In this document: one piece after another, positions 30,334 to 35,914 of the stretch
Numbering within the stretch: the first letter of the stretch is position 1
How the letters are laid out: each line of letters opens with the position of its first letter
From: Ignavibacteria bacterium
Lineage (GTDB): Bacteria; Bacteroidota; Ignavibacteria; Tepidaquicellales; Tepidaquicellaceae
Direction: 5' to 3'
Assembly: GCA_016783945.1 (NCBI GenBank)
Contig: JADHVP010000002.1
Location: 852 to 64,851 of the forward strand
DNA: 64,000 nucleotides
Position numbers and translations under genes: made by a program
Notes under the pieces: generated by a model
What the model saw: the letters and a program-made list of their open reading frames with translations, nothing else
Databases searched by the model: none
What the model was told of the DNA's origin: nothing

Positions 30334-31457
30334 AACCTTATAAAATTCTTACCGGGTATCTGTTTTATAATTTCTTTGAACTCAAGCGATAACAAATTTA
30401 CAAGGCAGTCAGATATAGACATCTCCGTTATTTCACTTATCTTATCAATGTGAATAGGTTCTATGCCTATAACTTCATAAATCTTTTTTTCAAAAATACT
30501 CAATTCCTGTATTTGTTTTTCTTCTTTCTCTGCCTCAGTCTTCTTCAATATAGGTTTAAGCTTGTAGCTTAATTCATTCAAAATGTCATCAACATTAGTC
30601 ACCAACTTTGCCTGACCATTCTTAATTAACTCATTACTGCCTTCAGATTTCTTTGAATAAATATATCCGGGTATTGCGAACACCTCTTTATTCTGGTCGA
30701 GAGCAAATTCCCCTGTTATTAAAGAACCGCCTTTTAAACCAGTTTCAACAATTAACGTCCCGACACTTATACCGCTTATTATTCTGTTCCTTCTCGGAAA
30801 ATTAACCTTATCAGGAGCAGCACCAATTTCAAACTCCGATATTACAGCACCGTTTTCTATAATCTGTTCGTAGAGCTTTTTATTTTCTTTGGGATAAACA
30901 ACATCTGCACCGCAGCCCAAAACAGCATAAGTTAAATTATTATTTTCAAGAGCAACTCTGTGTGACATAGAATCAATACCTCTCGCTAACCCGCTTACAA
31001 CGGGTATTCCCAATTTCGAAATCTCCTTAACCATTCTCTCGCATACGTTCCTGCCATATTCAGTGGGGAATCTCGTACCAACAACACTTAATGAATATTT
31101 ATCTTCTTTATAAAGCCTTCCTTTTATATATAACAATACCGGGGCATCAAATATCTTCTTCAGATTTGAGGGATACTCTTCATCGGTGATGTTTACGATT
31201 TGTATGTTCTTTTCTTCAGCATTCTTAATAATCTTATCGAACTCTATTTCATAATCTCCAAATAACTTCTTAGACTTCATTATCTCATTCGAAGTCTTCT
31301 CATCAATTCCCTCAATCCTTTTTAACTCATGTTTACTTAGCTCAAAACATTCCTTCGCTCCTTTGCAATGAGTAAGGATATTCTTTATCCTGACATTACC
31401 AATGTTTTTCACCTTCGTTAGATAAAATAAGTATTTTAAATTTTCTTTACTTTGCAA
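30330..31457 (-). CDS. dprA: DNA-processing protein DprA (Smf)
   Basis: Rossmann-like core VVGTRFPTEYGRNV...VSGLARGIDSMSHRVAL...AVLGCGADVVYP...FPRRNRIISGIS...VVETGLKGGSLITGEFALDQNKEVFAIPG. It uses a TTG start (rc of caa at 31455-31457) and overlaps the downstream gene by 4 nt. Confidence 0.9.
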   Translation of the reverse strand: MQSKENLKYLFYLTKVKNIGNVRIKNILTHCKGAKECFELSKHELKRIEGIDEKTSNEIMKSKKLFGDYEIEFDKIIKNAEEKNIQIVNITDEEYPSNLKKIFDAPVLLYIKGRLYKEDKYSLSVVGTRFPTEYGRNVCERMVKEISKLGIPVVSGLARGIDSMSHRVALENNNLTYAVLGCGADVVYPKENKKLYEQIIENGAVISEFEIGAAPDKVNFPRRNRIISGISVGTLIVETGLKGGSLITGEFALDQNKEVFAIPGYIYSKKSEGSNELIKNGQAKLVTNVDDILNELSYKLKPILKKTEAEKEEKQIQELSIFEKKIYEVIGIEPIHIDKISEITEMSISDCLVNLLSLEFKEIIKQIPGKNFIRL

Positions 31458-31574
31458 AAATTAATCCTTTATCCAATGATACGTAAACTTTATGCAAATT
31501 ATAATTTAATAATTGAAGTTTACAATATAATTATAAATCTACAAATTAACAAAGTGATAGAGAAGGGGGAGAGG
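31408..31574. repeat. direct repeat copy 1 (about 166 bp): dprA codons 1-16 plus the dprA upstream region
   Basis: Nearly identical to 33265-33430. The central ~135 bp differ at one position (ccaatgat vs cctatgat). The ends are more diverged. Confidence 0.9.
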
Positions 31575-31726
31575 TTAAAAAGAAATTTAATATGAGCGAT
31601 ACTATATTTTTACCAGATGTTGATGTTCTTTCACATACAATAAAAAAAAATATAGTGATGCTTCAAGTATCCCAACAGAATAACACCAAATGCATTTATA
31701 TGTTTATCTTGTTCACTGATTTCTTA

Positions 31727-32209
31727 CTAATTTTTGGATTTCAATTTCTTATCCCTAATTCTAAGAAAATCCCTAGGGTTTAATACTGGAATGTAGACAT
31801 GTTCTAGAAAAGTTCCTGCTGTTCTACTAGCAAACATAGCACGAGTGTGTGAAATTGATAATCCGATAATAGTAGCTTCGAATATTTCAGGTAATATTAA
31901 TCTTTTTTCTTGCTTATTATAATATTCTTTCAAATCTTGTACCTCAAATATATTTGCAGTAAGAATATTTCCCAACCTAATTTTTTTGTTTTCATCAAGA
32001 AAAACATTGACGTTAGTCTCTATAATTATTAAACCTTCATTTAGAATTGTATTATTTGTACATTGAACATCAAAGATATGGTTTTGAAAGGTCTTTTTGT
32101 CTGAAACTTCTTTATCTATTAATTCTTTTTTTAATTCTATTTTAAGAGAAAGTAAACTTATATCCTTAATTCTATATTTTATATGTTTTCTGTTGTTCTC
32201 CGTTTTCAT
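31727..32209 (-). CDS. SecB-like chaperone candidate (third gene of the cassette)
   Basis: 160 aa. By-eye similarity to E. coli SecB at both ends: YRIKDISL vs IQRIYTKDISF, and SHTRAMFASRTAGTFLEHVYIPVLNPRDF vs [29 protein letters not shown]. Its ATG directly abuts the stop of the upstream HTH gene. Confidence 0.45.
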   Translation of the reverse strand: MKTENNRKHIKYRIKDISLLSLKIELKKELIDKEVSDKKTFQNHIFDVQCTNNTILNEGLIIIETNVNVFLDENKKIRLGNILTANIFEVQDLKEYYNKQEKRLILPEIFEATIIGLSISHTRAMFASRTAGTFLEHVYIPVLNPRDFLRIRDKKLKSKN

Positions 32210-32665
32210 TTATGCTACTTCACTATGATATGTTTTATTAAGGGCTTTATTTAGATCGAGCAAATCATATTCTGACTTCAACGGAATTTTGTTAAAATAC
32301 TCTAAACGAACATTTTTATTTGCAATTTTTCTTTCAAAATAATCTTTATTAAATCGATAGGATGAACTTGATTCGTAATTTATATAGACATTTTCATAAG
32401 CATATTTTGGAACAAGTATTATATCTTCATTTAATGCAGATTCAATTTTTGCAATAGTATCTAATGTAAAGTTATGACTGCCATTTAACCATTTACTTAT
32501 TTCTGATTCATTTTTTCCAAGCTTTATAGCGAGTTCTTTTTGAGTCATCTTCTTCTCTTTAAGATATTGTGCAATCTGATCTGCAATATCCATAGAAATC
32601 CTAATGAATCTCCTCTTTTCGTCAGAGATATTCTTTAGTAATTCCTCAAATATTTTGCTACCCAT
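32210..32665 (-). CDS. XRE-family HTH protein with a ~65-aa C-terminal extension (antitoxin candidate, HigA-like)
   Basis: HTH KKMTQKELAIKLGKNESEISKWLNGSHNFTLDTIAKIESAL, followed by the tail VPKYAYENVYINYESSSSYRFNKDYFERKIANKNVRLEYFNKIPLKSEYDLLDLNKALNKTYHSEVA. Confidence 0.7.
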   Translation of the reverse strand: MGSKIFEELLKNISDEKRRFIRISMDIADQIAQYLKEKKMTQKELAIKLGKNESEISKWLNGSHNFTLDTIAKIESALNEDIILVPKYAYENVYINYESSSSYRFNKDYFERKIANKNVRLEYFNKIPLKSEYDLLDLNKALNKTYHSEVA

Positions 32666-32675
32666 ATTATTAATT

Positions 32676-33143
32676 TTAAAATTTAAAAATTAAATCCCCT
32701 ATAATTTCATTATCTGTTATTATAATTTCACCATCTTTTATTCTTTCATCAATTAAAGGAAATATTTCCTCAAGTTGATTTACAATTGTATTTAATTCAG
32801 GAATTTCCTGATATGTTGGTTTATCTTTAATACCACCATCGCCTAAAACAACAGCTACATTTCCATATCTTAAACAATATAATCTTAGATTACCTTCCCA
32901 TAATGAACAGATATTATTCAAAATACTGCTTTCTTCGATTTTAAAATAATGATCCTGGCATCCACTTTTATTTGCCATTCTCTCTATCTTTGATTCTATG
33001 TTTTCAATTCTATCTTTTTCAGATGATGAAAATTTCTGAAAAAATTTATCCGCTTCTGACTTTGGTTCTGAACAAAACCTAATAGTGTAAAAAGTTGATT
33101 TTTCTCCTTTATAAAATTCCTCTATTATAAACGAATTCTTCAC
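32676..33143 (-). CDS. RelE/ParE-superfamily (HigB/Gp49-like) toxin candidate with N- and C-terminal extensions
   Basis: 155 aa. The core ...SLWEGNLRLYCLRYGNVAVVLGDGGIKDKPTYQEIPE... resembles the (E)LR..hRhhY.....hhhLhhhhKK....P motif of Gp49/HigB toxins. It lies 10 nt upstream of the HTH gene. Confidence 0.4.
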   Translation of the reverse strand: MKNSFIIEEFYKGEKSTFYTIRFCSEPKSEADKFFQKFSSSEKDRIENIESKIERMANKSGCQDHYFKIEESSILNNICSLWEGNLRLYCLRYGNVAVVLGDGGIKDKPTYQEIPELNTIVNQLEEIFPLIDERIKDGEIIITDNEIIGDLIFKF

Positions 33144-33242
33144 TTATAAGTTAAGTATCTATTGTTTAAAAATGAATGCTAAAATATTACCCTTAACATG
33201 AATTTTATCTTTATTATAAATCTGTATACTTAGTGAAACAAT

Positions 33243-33314
33243 TTACCTTACAATACAAAGATTATTCACCTTTGTCAGGTAAAATAAGTATTTTAAATTT
33301 TCTTTACTTTGCAA
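33243..33314 (-). pseudogene. dprA' 5' remnant (16 dprA codons, then out-of-context sequence and a stop)
   Basis: Inside repeat copy 2: TTG CAA AGT AAA GAA AAT TTA AAA TAC TTA TTT TAC CTG ACA AAG GTG reads (M)QSKENLKYLFYLTKV, identical to the DprA N-terminus. It then continues NNLCIVR*. Confidence 0.8.
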
Positions 33315-33430
33315 AAATTAATCCTTTATCCTATGATACGTAAACTTTATGCAAATTATAATTTAATAATTGAAGTTTACAATATAATTATAAATCTACA
33401 AATTAACAAAGTGATATTAAGAGGGAGAGG
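33265..33430. repeat. direct repeat copy 2 (about 166 bp)
   Basis: See copy 1. It starts ttcacctttgtcaggtaaaataag and ends ...aacaaagtgatattaagagggagagg. Confidence 0.9.
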
Positions 33431-33436
33431 AAAAAT

Positions 33437-34498
33437 CTAAGTACACGACAAAAATTTAATTAGAAAATTAAACTCTTTTGATTTCAAATTAAGATCAAAG
33501 ATAACGCTTCTTAAATAATCCAAACCTTTTCTAAATATGCTTATTTCTTTTCTGCCATTTATTTTCAATTTTATTTTTATAGAATCATCTATCCAAATAC
33601 CCACAAGGTAAGACCATAAGAATGCTATTGTTAGTAGTGCAATTAACTTCTTAATTTTTATTGGATCTGTCATATGTGTCTTCTCAAAATCAAATCCTTT
33701 CGTCTTTAAATATCCAAATAGATTCTCAATTGTCCAACGCTGCTTATAATCTCCCAGAGCATCCCCCGGATTATTATTACTGGCTAATATAAAATACTCT
33801 CCTTTATTTGTGCGTCTTCCTGATATGTATAGTTCATTGTTATAGACCATCTTCTTATATGGTAAAACAATATAGCTATACGCTTTAGTATATTTGAATA
33901 AACTTCTTACAGTCTTTATCGGTGATTTATATTTTGTTATAACTGCATCCTTCCTTATTCTTATATGAAACTCCAGCTTACTCTCGATTAAATACTTGAA
34001 CCACTTCGCACTTGCAAATTCTCTGTCTGCTACTAATGATTTTATCCTCTGGAGACCTAATAAATTTATAGCTTTCTCTACCAACTCTTTTCTCTCTTCT
34101 ATCGATGAGTTTCCTCTCTTATTCAATAACTTCCAATACAATGGTATCGAGGTATCGCGGTATACTATTCCTAACATTAATATATTTATATCTTTTTTTC
34201 CAAACTGCCAGTTTGTTCTATCTAGTGTTAATATATACTTCTTGTCCTTTGGTAATTGTGTGATTACAAATCTCGATATTACATCATAGTCCATTACGAA
34301 TTCTGAAAAAAATCTCTGTATCCTTCTGTAGTTTGAACAATTCTTTACTCTATGATTTATATCTAATGATATATCTGTTAACTTTATTGTCTTTACCCTT
34401 ATTAGGCTTACTATAAATGAACTTATTAATTTTATCCTGGCTTTGTTACATCTAAAATGTTGTTGTAATATGTTTTGTAATTTTGTAATACGATTCAT
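33437..34498 (-). CDS. IS4-family DDE transposase
   Basis: 353 aa. DDE candidates are LDRTNW, VADREF and the YREK signature Y-x2-R-x3-E-x6-K (YKQRWTIENLFGYLK). The ORF runs to the last nucleotides of the element. Confidence 0.85.
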   Translation of the reverse strand: MNRITKLQNILQQHFRCNKARIKLISSFIVSLIRVKTIKLTDISLDINHRVKNCSNYRRIQRFFSEFVMDYDVISRFVITQLPKDKKYILTLDRTNWQFGKKDINILMLGIVYRDTSIPLYWKLLNKRGNSSIEERKELVEKAINLLGLQRIKSLVADREFASAKWFKYLIESKLEFHIRIRKDAVITKYKSPIKTVRSLFKYTKAYSYIVLPYKKMVYNNELYISGRRTNKGEYFILASNNNPGDALGDYKQRWTIENLFGYLKTKGFDFEKTHMTDPIKIKKLIALLTIAFLWSYLVGIWIDDSIKIKLKINGRKEISIFRKGLDYLRSVIFDLNLKSKEFNFLIKFLSCT

Positions 34499-34600
34499 AA
34501 TCTGATTTTTATATTATATTATTAAATTTTGTGGTTTGATAAATATAATAAATTTGAGTCAGATTATCTTTTTTTATTTCTCTTTTTTGTCGTGTACTAA
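33437..34600 (-). mobile_element. IS4-family insertion sequence (about 1164 bp) with terminal inverted repeats and a 10-bp target-site duplication
   Basis: Left end (c)taagtacacgacaaaaa (33437-33454) matches the right end tttttgtcgtgtactaa (34584-34600) as a 17-bp IR with one mismatch. The flanking direct repeat gaggaaaaat occurs at 33427-33436 and 34601-34610. Confidence 0.85.
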
Positions 34601-34762
34601 GAGGAAAAATACAAAACTTGGAATACCTGTATTAATTCAATCTAACTTTTTTAAAATGTTTCTCTGCATTCGGACAGGAATAAATATTTGCTTATTTTCT
34701 ATAATAAAAATACTATATGTTATTTCAAAGTTCATTAATAACTTTTAACAAAGGGGCAACAA

Positions 34763-35914
34763 ATGGAAAAGAAAACCTATCTGAATCTCATCTTCCTTTT
34801 AGTAATATTATTTCCTTTAAATCTTTTTTCACAGCAAGACGGTCCGCGTGGTGAATATCCAGACGCTATAATCAATCCTTACTGGGAATTTTATTCTGAA
34901 AACAGACTATCAACAATTTCAGGAGGCAAAGGATATACAGGAGTTGCATCATTAGGAGATATGTCAAGCATTTCACTAAATCCCGCTTCTCTTTATATTG
35001 AAAAAAGATTTAATACAAATGTGAGTTACAATTTTCGAACAAGAGTAAACTATCTGCCTTATTTCTCAAGTGATGATTATTTGAAAAATGCACTCCCATC
35101 TTTATCAGTCGGGGGAGGATATCGAATTAATGAGAATTTTCAAACGGGATTTTCTTATCAAAATAATTACAGTTATAAATATGATTTTATTTTAATTACA
35201 ACGAATGAATTTGGAACTGAAATAGGAAGAAACGAAGCATACTACAAGTTTATTTCGCATTCATTTATAGTACCATTTGTATTTAATTACGAGTGGTTAA
35301 GGCTTGGTGCAAATCTAAATCTAACATATATAACAGGTGATTTTGATTACGGTGAAGATATTTTCATTAATGAATTTCCTACCTCGGGTAAAGCAGAGCT
35401 ATGGAGTTTCATTCCTCAAATAGGATTTATAATTTCTCCGAATAAATATTTTTCTTTGGGCGCCTCTTATACATTCGGGTTTTCTGACAACTTTGAGTGG
35501 GAATATAATAGGGGAACTCCTCAAACATCGTATTGTGAAATACCTTCAAGACTATCAGTAGGAACCGAAGGTAAGCTCCTGGAAGATAAATTAAGGTTAT
35601 CGCTTGAATATCATTATGCAAACACGTCAGCCATTAACTACCTGAAAGATAAAAGTAACATACATCTTGGAGCAGAATATTCTATTAATGATTTCTGGAT
35701 AGTACGGGGAGGTTTCTTTACACTTTTTGATTTTCGTGATGTCGATGACACCTGGAACTACAATACAACATTCGACCAGTTTTTCATTACAGTTGGAGGA
35801 ACATATAAATACAAAGGACTTGCATTTAATGTAGCACTCCTGAGTAGTTATTTAACCAGTAGCTCGGGTGTAAAGCATTCGATTATAAATGCGGGGATTG
35901 GTTTTGATTTTTGA
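34763..35914 (+). CDS. outer-membrane beta-barrel protein (FadL/PorV-like; family uncertain)
   Basis: Signal peptide ...LFPLNLFSQQ, GDMSSISLNPASL (an NPA(G/S)L motif as in FadL/PorV-type barrels), and a C-terminal ...NAGIGFDF. Confidence 0.45.
   Translation: MEKKTYLNLIFLLVILFPLNLFSQQDGPRGEYPDAIINPYWEFYSENRLSTISGGKGYTGVASLGDMSSISLNPASLYIEKRFNTNVSYNFRTRVNYLPYFSSDDYLKNALPSLSVGGGYRINENFQTGFSYQNNYSYKYDFILITTNEFGTEIGRNEAYYKFISHSFIVPFVFNYEWLRLGANLNLTYITGDFDYGEDIFINEFPTSGKAELWSFIPQIGFIISPNKYFSLGASYTFGFSDNFEWEYNRGTPQTSYCEIPSRLSVGTEGKLLEDKLRLSLEYHYANTSAINYLKDKSNIHLGAEYSINDFWIVRGGFFTLFDFRDVDDTWNYNTTFDQFFITVGGTYKYKGLAFNVALLSSYLTSSSGVKHSIINAGIGFDF

Follow-up and report, generated by a model that had tools for sequence, protein, structure and literature searches.

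A candidate toxin-antitoxin-chaperone cassette with a divergent SecB-like protein in Ignavibacteria and Bacteroidota

The toxin-antitoxin-chaperone (TAC) systems characterized to date come from Actinobacteria and Proteobacteria. Recent work has shown that they defend against phages, the chaperone being the sensor of a phage protein. The units that consist of a ChAD extension on the antitoxin plus its chaperone can be transferred between toxin-antitoxin (TA) systems in the laboratory. The systems most similar to the locus described here are the TAC system of Mycobacterium tuberculosis, HigB1-HigA1-Rv1957, and the HigBAC system of Escherichia coli. The chaperone of the latter is also a phage sensor, which is titrated by a phage structural protein (bioRxiv 2024.02.24.581848). 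The ChAD elements reportedly lack significant mutual similarity and require aromatic residues (PMC5105189; bioRxiv 2024.02.24.581848). The 2013 survey of TAC systems makes no mention of Bacteroidetes in its text.

Another closely related system is PDC-M64, which is listed in PADLOC as a phage-defence candidate (Payne et al., bioRxiv 10.1101/2024.01.29.577857). PDC-M64 was defined from cassettes of 2 and 3 genes, of which the 3-gene form is CAS_00209, and it was detected inside loci for BREX, DISARM or type I RM (bioRxiv 10.1101/2024.01.29.577857). It is a candidate without an assigned function or mechanism, and SecB is absent from the text of that paper (bioRxiv 10.1101/2024.01.29.577857). A literature search for the name PDC-M64 retrieved no paper text, only a supplement.

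In the window, by which we refer to the whole stretch of 64,000 nucleotides analysed here, 3 adjacent genes called A, B, and C belong to this group. Their products matched the PDC-M64 models in PADLOC at 1e-36 for A (PDLC04756, full length), 2.3e-33 for B (PDLC04760, residues 1-89) and 4.5e-14 for C. The cassette and PDC-M64 thus consist of the same protein families, and both the 2-gene and the 3-gene forms were also seen here. The interpretation of PDC-M64 as a TAC system, and the relation between the antitoxin tail and the chaperone, are results of the present analysis. A first-pass annotation of the DNA had stated that no characterized TAC was known in this lineage; the family turned out to be catalogued already as a defence candidate, but it was not recognized there as a TAC. 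The independent proposal of a role in defence is an argument for the TAC reading. We estimate the probability that the cassette is a tripartite TAC module with a HigBAC-type gene order to be about 0.77.

Gene order and genomic setting of the cassette

The 3 genes are intact open reading frames on the minus strand. Gene A (32676..33143) starts with GTG and encodes a putative toxin of 155 amino acids, which has a predicted RelE/ParE (BECR) fold and belongs to an uncatalogued family. Gene B (32210..32665, the whole open reading frame) encodes a candidate Xre-HTH antitoxin of 151 amino acids, and gene C (31727..32209) encodes a candidate SecB-fold chaperone of 160 amino acids from a divergent SecB-like family. 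The stop codon of A is separated from the ATG codon of B by 10 nt, and the ATG codon of C follows directly, and in frame, after the TAA stop codon of B (...GCA TAA ATG...). The close packing of 3 minus-strand genes described in the first-pass annotation was thereby confirmed, and the peptides quoted in it were all recovered, at residues 83-113 for the core of A and at residues 12-19 ('YRIKDISL') and 122-148 ('TRAMFASRTAG...') of C. Both A and C are annotated as hypothetical in RefSeq.

The comparison with HigB1-HigA1-Rv1957 also held, in that the gene for the putative toxin is followed by those for the candidate HTH antitoxin and the SecB-like chaperone and the junctions are tight or abutting, as they are in the M. 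tuberculosis TAC and in E. coli HigBAC. Both the spacing and the recurrence of the order in about 70 of 85 related loci identify the trio as co-directional and tightly linked.

On either side of the cassette lies a copy of a direct repeat, which has a core of 171 nt at 94% identity, or about 195 nt at 91.5% identity if gaps are included. The left copy (31384..31581) covers the start of dprA, identified by Pfam DNA_processg_A at 5.4e-74, and its upstream region. The right copy (33242..33435) holds an orphan 5' fragment of dprA with its upstream region, and ends where the inverted repeat of an IS4-family insertion sequence begins. This element (33436..34602, minus strand) adjoins the cassette, has 19-nt terminal inverted repeats (33436-33454 and 34584-34602, 95%) and encodes a transposase at 33437-34498 (NF033591 IS4, 1.5e-64; DDE_Tnp_1, 5.9e-16). 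The repeat and the abutting IS4 element agree with the accessory status that had been proposed for the cassette. The neighbouring genes in the window are housekeeping genes, with no defence island, which counts against the TAC reading.

The region upstream of A (33144..33283, minus strand) is a candidate promoter/operator. It contains a -35/-10-like site at 33278..33250 on the minus strand, which is overlapped by a 12-nt inverted repeat (33242-33253 and 33272-33283) of 92% complementarity. In a consensus scan for promoters and terminators, the sites were not enriched over shuffled sequences in this AT-rich DNA, and we therefore treat the site upstream of A as a lead and not as a finding. Downstream of C, a possible terminator (31641..31695, minus strand) consists of a weak hairpin with a U9 run behind it; its folding energy was no better than that of shuffled sequences (z = 0.49), and it was missed by the consensus scan.

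Predicted folds and domains of the 3 proteins

The AF2 model of the C protein was of high confidence (pLDDT 94.9, pTM 0.87), and the monomer displayed the topology of SecB, with a four-stranded sheet, a long alpha1 helix and another helix at the C-terminus. In a Foldseek search of the PDB, ranks 1 to 18 were all either SecB (1ozb, 1fx3, 1qyn) or Rv1957 with the HigA1 ChAD peptide (5mtw), with E-values of 7e-6 to 1.5e-4, a probability of 1.00 and target-normalised TM-scores of 0.58 to 0.73. The SecB resemblance that had been seen by eye in the first-pass annotation is thus matched by the predicted fold, and we conclude that C is confidently modelled as a SecB-fold protein. The presence of Rv1957 among the top matches indicates that the fold is common to C and the chaperone of the M. 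tuberculosis TAC.

The similarity was also detected at the sequence level, but there it was confined to the half of C that corresponds to the beta-sheet. When searched against the whole PDB, a profile of the C family retrieved E. coli SecB only (E 1.4e-3), a weak but specific match, and an hhalign comparison of the C family with SecB gave an E-value of 3.4e-5 and a probability of 72%. In the profile alignment, the C-terminal segment that had been matched to SecB by eye was in register, and the invariant residue R123 was placed on the arginine in the SecB motif 'YARECITSM'. The N-terminal match was correct with regard to the region, strand beta1, but the literal 'KDIS' was 4 to 5 residues out of register. 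No match to Pfam (PF02556) or NCBIfam was obtained for C, nor was any Pfam match found for 118 members of the family scanned singly, and a phmmer search with the single sequence against PDB sequences retrieved nothing.

Compared with the canonical SecB proteins of E. coli (1qyn) and Haemophilus influenzae (1fx3, 1ozb), C has the same predicted fold and topology, at target-normalised TM-scores of 0.62 to 0.73, and a conserved arginine and G-T-F...P motif in helix alpha1 and the following loop, whereas the sequence identity is only about 10% and PF02556 is not reached. Furthermore, the C-terminus of C is basic (…RDKKLKSKN) while that of E. coli SecB is acidic, and the gene for C is located in a mobile TA cassette while the canonical secB gene has a housekeeping context. 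The divergence of its family, which is missed by PF02556, and its basic C-terminus also distinguish C from the chaperones of the M. tuberculosis TAC and of E. coli HigBAC.

The A protein was likewise modelled with high confidence (pLDDT 95.0, pTM 0.90), with the topology b-b-a-a-b-b-b-a-b-b and elements at residues b5-12 (plus b17-23), a30-38, a43-60, b78-83, b86-93, b97-105, and a115-136. The model contains the b-a-a-b-b-b-a core that is described as the topology of BECR toxins (PMC11980606). Its best match in the PDB with Foldseek was HigB of Streptococcus pneumoniae (6af4/6af3; E 4.7e-3, probability 1.0, TMt 0.61), followed by YoeB, YafQ, RelK, RelE, and HigB1 of M. tuberculosis (7nbu). Nearly all of the top 26 matches were toxins that belong to the RelE/ParE superfamily, at modest similarity (best E-value 4.7e-3, TM-scores of 0.5 to 0.64). 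We conclude that A is confidently predicted to have a RelE/ParE-type (BECR) fold and that its structural similarity to solved toxins is modest. Across about 100 diverse members of the family, the conserved residues are K68, E71, R87, Y89, R92, K106, K108, and Q112, and the invariant core, charged and aromatic, is located on the sheet and immediately following strand beta4 of the model.

The identification of A as a RelE/ParE/HigB-like protein thus stood with regard to the fold and the structural matches, but not with regard to a toxin family in Pfam or NCBIfam. Neither A nor C of the window reached any Pfam or NCBIfam model; the profile HMM check put forward in the first-pass annotation failed for these 2 proteins, and their support comes from the predicted folds and from the level of family profiles. 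For A, no Pfam match to RelE, ParE, HigB or Gp49 was obtained in 98 members of the family scanned singly at E-values of up to 1, no RelE-family sequence was found among PDB sequences with a profile of the family, a single-sequence phmmer search of the PDB sequences retrieved nothing, and Foldseek retrieved nothing significant from BFVD, a library of viral structures.

The closest structures to A, those of S. pneumoniae HigBA, YoeB, YafQ, and RelE/RelK, share the b-a-a-b-b-b-a core with it, and in S. pneumoniae HigBA the toxin gene is likewise located 5' of the gene for the HTH antitoxin. These are 2-component systems with toxins of 85 to 120 amino acids, as compared with 155 amino acids for A, and the sequence identities to A are only 11% to 20%, with no significant sequence-profile match. 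A RelE/ParE-superfamily fold is also common to A and HigB1 of M. tuberculosis, but A is about 30 to 40 amino acids longer than the toxins of the M. tuberculosis TAC and E. coli HigBAC, with an extra N-terminal strand, a long C-terminal helix and a hairpin in the model, and unlike them it reaches no HigB, Gp49 or RelE model in Pfam. The enlargement of A was therefore only partly as first described: the N-terminal strand, C-terminal helix and hairpin are additions, but the '70 extra N-terminal residues' belong to the fold, since the first 70 residues or so form its beta-alpha-alpha half in the model.

The B protein was identified as an Xre HTH protein with a C-terminal tail, as proposed. The HTH domain (residues 31-81; 32423..32575, minus strand) matched Pfam HTH_3 at 7.6e-12, and the tail (residues 86-151; 32213..32410, minus strand) is 66 amino acids long, close to the 65 or so that had been estimated, and represents a candidate chaperone-addiction (ChAD-like) extension. 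The nearest solved sequences were generic Xre HTH proteins and the HTH domain of HicB, only generic HTH matches were found in PHROGs, and the score against the HigA-family model TIGR02607 in NCBIfam was 17.9 bits, below the cut-off of 47.7. B is accordingly a generic Xre/HTH_3 protein. Phenylalanine, tryptophan and tyrosine make up 18% of its tail; in the relatives, aromatic residues account for 11% of the tails as compared with 5.9% of the HTH parts, and the tails cannot be aligned between relatives. In their sequences, the tails of the B family thus appear to resemble ChAD elements, being enriched in aromatic residues and unalignable. Taken together, the SecB fold of C, the RelE/ParE-type fold of A and the Xre HTH domain with a tail in B provide computational support for the TAC reading.

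Relatives of the cassette and the antitoxin tail

Homologues of A were found in 1078 clusters and homologues of C in 448 representatives at 50% identity, and relatives of A are present in at least 242 species. The cassette was identified in Ignavibacteria, Bacteroidota, and Balneolales, including Bacteroides and Parabacteroides from the human gut. The gene for B followed that for A in 83 of 85 loci from genomes and metagenomes, the remaining 2 being cut by contig ends, and C was the third gene in 70 of the 85, with the order A-B-C conserved amid unrelated neighbours. The size of the homologous families and the recurrence of this order next to unrelated genes indicate that the cassette is more than a chance arrangement. 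The flanking genes and the repeat of the window were searched for in the other loci, and no shared context was found.

The family of A is mobile and patchily distributed, and is borne on phages and plasmids. A patchy and mobile distribution is also a feature of the M. tuberculosis TAC and E. coli HigBAC systems (PMC3581621). The 2 matches to A in plasmids were both annotated only as hypothetical, a tblastn search with A found nothing in annotated phage genomes, and defence genes were only sporadically present near the loci of the relatives.

The length of the B tail was found to vary with the third gene. The tail contained 28 to 77 amino acids if a SecB-type gene followed and 0 to 33 amino acids if none did. 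For the 67 loci with C the median was 51 amino acids (range 32 to 77), as against 16 amino acids for the 10 loci that lack it (Mann-Whitney p = 2.7e-6), although this test treats the loci as independent, which phylogenetically they are not, so that the p-value overstates the support and the number of transitions, at least 6, is a fairer figure. Of the viral loci, 63 of 64 had a tail of at most 12 amino acids and no C. The extension is accordingly missing in chaperone-independent homologues, as expected of a ChAD-type element, and the combination of an Xre HTH domain with a C-terminal extension is common to B and the antitoxins of the M. tuberculosis TAC and HigBAC. As a point against the TAC reading, 2 loci without a chaperone retained tails of intermediate length, 25 and 33 amino acids.

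Three loci with long tails seemed to be exceptions, but these contained a different third gene. In the loci L009 and L033, the third gene was a SecB according to Pfam (PF02556; 38.2 and 37.4 bits, cut-off 26), from which we conclude that the third slot is a SecB slot. The third gene of L009 was identified as SecB through Pfam, and an hhalign comparison of it with the C profile was not significant. The canonical type of SecB and the divergent C-type chaperone are thus interchangeable in this position. We also considered that the correlation between tail and chaperone could be due to a single inherited event, but this was rejected, as the state of the two switched 6 or more times on the tree of A.

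The comparative evidence is the strongest support for the TAC reading. Shown here are the predicted folds or domains of the 3 proteins, the conservation of their gene order, the recurrent joint presence of tail and chaperone, the replacement of C by a Pfam-recognized SecB in relatives and the accessory, mobile genomic behaviour.

The same comparisons bear on the possibility that A and B are an ordinary HigBA-like TA pair, and that C is a SecB-derived accessory, such as a sensor or adaptor for phage proteins or a chaperone for A. The 2-gene form is common, especially on viral contigs, which implies that A and B are able to work without C, and the HigBAC chaperone of E. coli does double as a phage sensor (bioRxiv 2024.02.24.581848). 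However, the presence of C tracks the tail of B and no feature of A, and this correlation would be unexplained if C were serving A. Moreover, B and C are fused into one open reading frame in 3 loci (L037, L055, and L074), and the stop codon of B abuts the start of C in the window. We therefore regard an ordinary pair with an accessory as improbable.

Slightly less probable still is that A is an inactive or repurposed RelE-fold protein, in a cassette that is transcription-regulatory or otherwise non-toxic. The structural E-values for A are weak, no Pfam match to RelE, ParE, HigB or Gp49 is available to place it, and the N-terminal strand, C-terminal helix and hairpin have been added to the fold, all of which would be compatible with this. 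Yet the invariant charged and aromatic core is strongly conserved in some 100 diverse members, the gene occupies the toxin position of higBA, first and ahead of the HTH gene, and the family is mobile, patchy and carried by phages and plasmids; its embedding also caused it to be flagged as a candidate for defence. A general export chaperone, that is a housekeeping SecB merely located beside a TA pair, is a very improbable identity for C: its fold and the ability of TAC chaperones to complement secB-mutant E. coli (PMC5105189) would fit, but C lies within a repeat-bracketed accessory cassette beside an IS, is immediately juxtaposed to B, is present in some genomes only and behind an HTH gene wherever examined, lacks the acidic C-terminus of SecB and disappears along with the tail of B. 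This identity was rejected on the basis of context and co-loss.

Proposed mechanism and implications

Returning to the tripartite TAC module, we infer toxicity and RNase activity for A, neutralisation of A by B, binding of the B tail by C, and a trigger. In this model, A would be a toxin of the RelE/ParE superfamily, and most probably an mRNA endonuclease that depends on the ribosome, similar to HigB, YoeB, YafQ, and RelE, as suggested by its fold and its conserved basic, acidic and tyrosine residues. By analogy, B would neutralise A and autoregulate the operon. The aromatic-rich tail of B may act as a ChAD-like element that renders B alone unstable or misfolded, and C, the gene of which is translationally juxtaposed to that of B, would bind the tail and thereby keep B functional, to which the B-C fusion reading frames lend indirect support. 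If C were titrated by an unfolded or aromatic-rich client, for example a phage structural protein, B would be lost and translation would be arrested by A, with abortive infection, or else addiction to the mobile cassette, as the consequence.

The data support the view that the cassette is a new, previously unannotated representative of the TAC class, and that this class is widespread in Bacteroidota and their relatives. The TAC architecture would thereby be extended to Ignavibacteria, Bacteroidota, and Balneolales, with 242 species or more. Pfam recognizes neither the putative toxin family nor the SecB-like family, the members of which carry the label of hypothetical proteins, and the practical gains are a better annotation of these 2 protein families and candidate pairs of chaperones and tags for Bacteroidota. 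PDC-M64, in turn, gains a concrete and testable candidate mechanism.

Within a single toxin family, joint gains or losses of antitoxin tail and chaperone have taken place at least 6 times, which represents a natural experiment that parallels the transfer of ChAD-plus-chaperone units between TA systems in the laboratory. A more speculative and rather doubtful extension is that the cassette is an anti-phage TAC specific to Bacteroidota and Ignavibacteria, in which proteins of the C family would serve as phage sensors, titrated by a phage structural protein, and the family-specific C-terminal helix-hairpin of the enlarged toxin would serve a target or mode of regulation other than the classical, ribosome-dependent cleavage by RelE/HigB. 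If this is true, the gain and loss of tail and chaperone would correspond to a modular sensor plug-in, by which a plain TA pair would be turned into an infection-triggered system.

Organization and surroundings of the cassette

The cassette consists of 3 minus-strand genes, which we refer to as A (32676-33143; 155 aa, GTG start), a putative toxin, B (32210-32665; 151 aa), a candidate antitoxin with a helix-turn-helix (HTH) domain, and C (31727-32209; 160 aa), a candidate SecB-like chaperone. Genes A and B are separated by 10 nt, and the ATG of C follows directly, and in frame, after the TAA stop codon of B. This layout reproduces the ORFs, gap, and B-C abutment described in the first-pass annotation, and every peptide motif quoted there was found in the proteins. 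The N-terminus of A, MKNSFIIE, is common to its homologs. Since the genes belong to large homolog families (1078 clusters for A, and 448 representatives at 50% identity for C) and the A-B-C order was seen again in many unrelated genomic contexts, they are not chance ORFs. Candidate leads to regulatory signals are a promoter-like site upstream of A, which is overlapped by an inverted repeat, and a weak hairpin with a U-run after C.

The cassette is flanked on one side by the housekeeping genes hslUV, rpoN, a DUF3109 gene and dprA, and on the other by an IS4 element, an unassigned ORF of 383 aa, and genes for an oligopeptide permease. Each side also bears a copy of a direct repeat of about 195 nt (31384-31581 and 33242-33435; 94% identity over a 171-nt core). 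It takes in the TTG start and some 20 codons of dprA plus roughly 105 nt of the DNA upstream, and the right copy is therefore an orphan 5' fragment of dprA. The outer end of this copy is the exact start of the inverted repeat of the IS4-family element, which lies directly beside the cassette and is apparently complete (33436-34602; 19-nt terminal inverted repeats, 95%; 353-aa DDE transposase, NF033591, 1.5e-64). This arrangement points to an integration, of Campbell type or associated with the IS, in which an intact dprA was kept. Because these surroundings, when sought in the other loci, were shared by none, they are consistent with horizontal acquisition. Two near-identical short plus-strand ORFs (31452-31595 and 33309-33440; MQKLILYPMIRKLYANYNLIIEVYNIIINLQINKVI...) are a by-product of the repeat and probably not genes. 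The 383-aa ORF (34763-35914, plus strand) has a hydrophobic N-terminus, ends in GIGFDF, and resembles an outer-membrane beta-barrel protein, with no Pfam match at 1e-5.

Profile HMM searches, as proposed in the first-pass annotation, identified an HTH_3 domain in B (residues 31-81, 7.6e-12), whereas A and C had no RelE, ParE, HigB, Gp49, or SecB match in Pfam and NCBIfam; matches to these libraries were limited to B and the adjoining transposase. All 3 proteins matched a single candidate system in PADLOC, PDC-M64 (A, 1e-36; B, 2.3e-33; C, 4.5e-14). This is one of 145 phage defence candidates proposed because they lie within BREX, DISARM, or type I restriction-modification (RM) loci, and it is defined in the supplement as a 2-gene (43 instances) and a 3-gene cassette (34 instances); the paper assigns it no function, and SecB is absent from its text (Payne et al., bioRxiv 10.1101/2024.01.29.577857).

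Predicted folds of C and A

An exhaustive HMMER search collected C homologs of about 140 to 165 aa, the alignment of which (A2) was used for profile comparisons and for an AlphaFold2 model. In the entire PDB, the family profile matched only 2 entries, both E. coli SecB (E 1.4e-3; positions 1-86 against SecB 1-90). An hhalign comparison with full-length E. coli SecB, of which the first 90 residues were confirmed by the PDB match, covered the same half (E 3.4e-5, 72% probability). The very confident model (pLDDT 94.9, pTM 0.87) combines a beta-alpha-beta-beta-beta sheet with two helices, one long and one C-terminal. In a Foldseek search of the PDB, ranks 1-18 were all SecB of H. influenzae or E. 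coli, or M. tuberculosis Rv1957 in complex with the chaperone-addiction (ChAD) peptide of HigA1 (E 7e-6 to 1.5e-4, probability 1.00, target-normalized TM 0.58-0.73), and lower-ranked matches were far weaker. The SecB-like fold proposed for C is thus supported, and its by-eye similarity to SecB held in part. The C-terminal stretch AGTFL...LP.VNP lines up with the corresponding SecB stretch in a joint alignment, directly after R123, the sole residue besides Met1 that is invariant across the family, the Pfam-positive SecB third genes of related loci, and E. coli SecB. The N-terminal KDIS match is offset from the hhalign profile alignment by 4-5 residues. None of 118 family members reached the Pfam SecB model; as a family, they make up a divergent branch of SecB-like proteins that has not been catalogued. 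Distant members, inspected singly, likewise came immediately after an HTH gene of about 140 aa, and it is less likely that C is a housekeeping SecB.

The A family, as recovered by profile search, comprises proteins of about 160 to 170 aa, mainly from Bacteroidota and Ignavibacteria. Pfam domains are absent from all 1078 clusters, a few of which bear the JGI name [quoted passage not shown]. The confident AlphaFold2 model (pLDDT 95.0, pTM 0.90) has the elements b5-12, b17-23, a30-38 and a43-60, followed by b78-83, b86-93, b97-105, a115-136, b140-142 and b147-149, among them the b-a-a-b-b-b-a core by which BECR/RelE toxins are defined (PMC11980606). The approximately 70 N-terminal residues previously described as an extra segment are therefore the ordinary beta-alpha-alpha half of the fold, and what is really added is a second strand at the N-terminus and, at the C-terminus, a long helix followed by a small terminal hairpin. 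It was also noted that both short strands of this family-specific mini-hairpin (EIIITDN and EIIGDLI) are encoded by a 21-nt tandem duplication with 86% identity at the 3' end of the minus-strand gene (32700-32741).

The best 26 Foldseek matches of A in the PDB were nearly all RelE/ParE-superfamily toxins, with S. pneumoniae HigB first (6af4/6af3; E 4.7e-3, probability 1.00, target-normalized TM 0.61), followed by YoeB, YafQ, RelK, RelE, and the M. tuberculosis TAC toxin HigB1 (7nbu); the ParE gyrase poisons ranked below the mRNases. Since these scores are modest, the family profile had no RelE-type match among PDB sequences, and no scanned member reached a toxin Pfam model, the RelE/ParE assignment is one of fold and context, not of sequence. 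Conserved polar residues (K68, E71, R87, Y89, R92, K106, K108, and Q112) fall within FFK..EG...LRLYC.R.G...LGGGG.K.K....Q and, in the model, would lie on or just after the sheet, at the position expected of an active RelE-type RNase; that A is inactive is the less likely possibility.

Antitoxin tails and chaperone genes in related loci

In a pattern scan that took one genome from each species, A relatives were identified in 242 species, nearly all Bacteroidota, Ignavibacteriota, or Balneolales. We compared 85 loci, and every one that was not cut by a contig end contained an HTH gene after A, which in 70 of the 85 was followed by a C-family gene. Median lengths of the B tail beyond the HTH domain were 51 aa (32-77) where C was present (67 loci) and 16 aa where it was not (10 loci; Mann-Whitney p = 2.7e-6, relatedness ignored). 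On viral contigs (IMG/VR, n=65), the A family had almost wholly the 2-gene form, with a tail of at most 12 aa and no C in 63 of 64 loci. Most chromosomal loci contained the 3-gene form, in contrast to these viral or prophage contigs (L088-L152, many from human-gut metagenomes), in which A is almost always paired with a short HTH protein whose tail measures 0-12 aa.

Three long-tailed loci were seeming exceptions, and in each a third gene abutted B. In 2 Balneolales genomes, its product matched Pfam SecB (L009, 4897-5346, 38.2 bits; L033, 4798-5235, 37.4 bits; E about 2e-9, gathering threshold 26 bits), and in an IMG/VR contig the SecB match was weak (L095, 4940-5422, E 0.016). Two kinds of SecB-like chaperone thus serve a single toxin-antitoxin family, in which the third slot is occupied by a canonical-type SecB or by the divergent C type. 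These third proteins are not members of the C family, and have acidic or charged C-terminal tails. With the 3 loci reclassified, B tails measured 28-77 aa in loci with a chaperone gene and 0-33 aa in loci without one. The 2-gene and 3-gene states changed at least 6 times in a neighbor-joining tree of 94 distinct A proteins, in which the Pfam-SecB loci were nested among C-type loci. Against this co-variation, it is less likely that C has a role other than antitoxin stabilization.

Continuous B-C ORFs of 278-294 aa, with an HTH, a tail and a SecB-like domain, were identified in L037 (1732-2568), L055 (4446-5330), and L074 (4465-5337). Either genuine fusions or assembly differences of one base may explain these, and since a single substitution in the in-frame B stop codon would yield one, they offer modest support. 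The B tails could not be aligned among relatives and were rich in aromatic residues (11%, versus 5.9% in the HTH parts; 18% in the window), which matches ChAD elements, reported to lack significant similarity between systems and to be recognized via aromatic residues (PMC5105189; PMC6377645; bioRxiv 2024.02.24.581848).

Neighboring genes in other genomes were heterogeneous; type I RM HsdM, integrases, HipA, Mrr, ResIII, an AbiEii-like ATPase, and Fic recurred in a minority only. Cassettes on a B. thetaiotaomicron and a Hymenobacter plasmid are annotated in RefSeq as hypothetical, HTH regulator, and hypothetical. The 3-gene cassette on Hymenobacter swuensis plasmid pHsw1 (NZ_CP007144.1, 225796-234239) is flanked by a DEAD/DEAH-box helicase gene of 3.2 kb and by a second helicase-domain gene, which may exemplify the location within larger defence loci on which the PADLOC listing is based.

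Relationship to known chaperone-dependent systems

Toxin-antitoxin-chaperone (TAC) systems have formed a recognized class since 2011; their warheads are HigBA, MqsRA, HicAB, and CmdTA (bioRxiv 2024.02.24.581848). A 2013 survey listed 49 systems in 7 phyla, and Bacteroidetes is not named in its text (PMC3581621). The cassette shares the gene organization, a third gene whose product has a predicted SecB fold, and an extension of the antitoxin that is missing in chaperone-free relatives, but falls outside the Pfam SecB and toxin families. The most fitting classification is thus TAC in architecture, with a toxin family of RelE fold that had not been catalogued before and a SecB-like family that is divergent. 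A HigBAC-type TAC is the best-supported reading, in agreement with the first-pass annotation, with the correction that the families were already listed, as the cassette corresponds to PDC-M64.

The observations behind it are the predicted folds, the gene order, the co-variation of tail and chaperone gene, the replacement of C by a recognized SecB in relatives, and mobility. According to this reading, A would be a translation-dependent mRNase, which B would neutralize while repressing the operon via its HTH domain. The aromatic tail would make B dependent on C, a putative tail-binding holdase, and other clients could titrate C and thereby release A. In E. coli HigBAC, a phage tail protein acts as such a client, in competition with the ChAD (bioRxiv 2024.02.24.581848), and a comparable defence role may be envisaged here.

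One more TAC system would not surprise specialists. The family is nevertheless worth an experiment, as it is present in hundreds of species, including gut Bacteroidales, its tail and chaperone have been naturally gained and lost, and the mechanistic reading that it would provide for the defence candidate PDC-M64 adds to the value of such an experiment.
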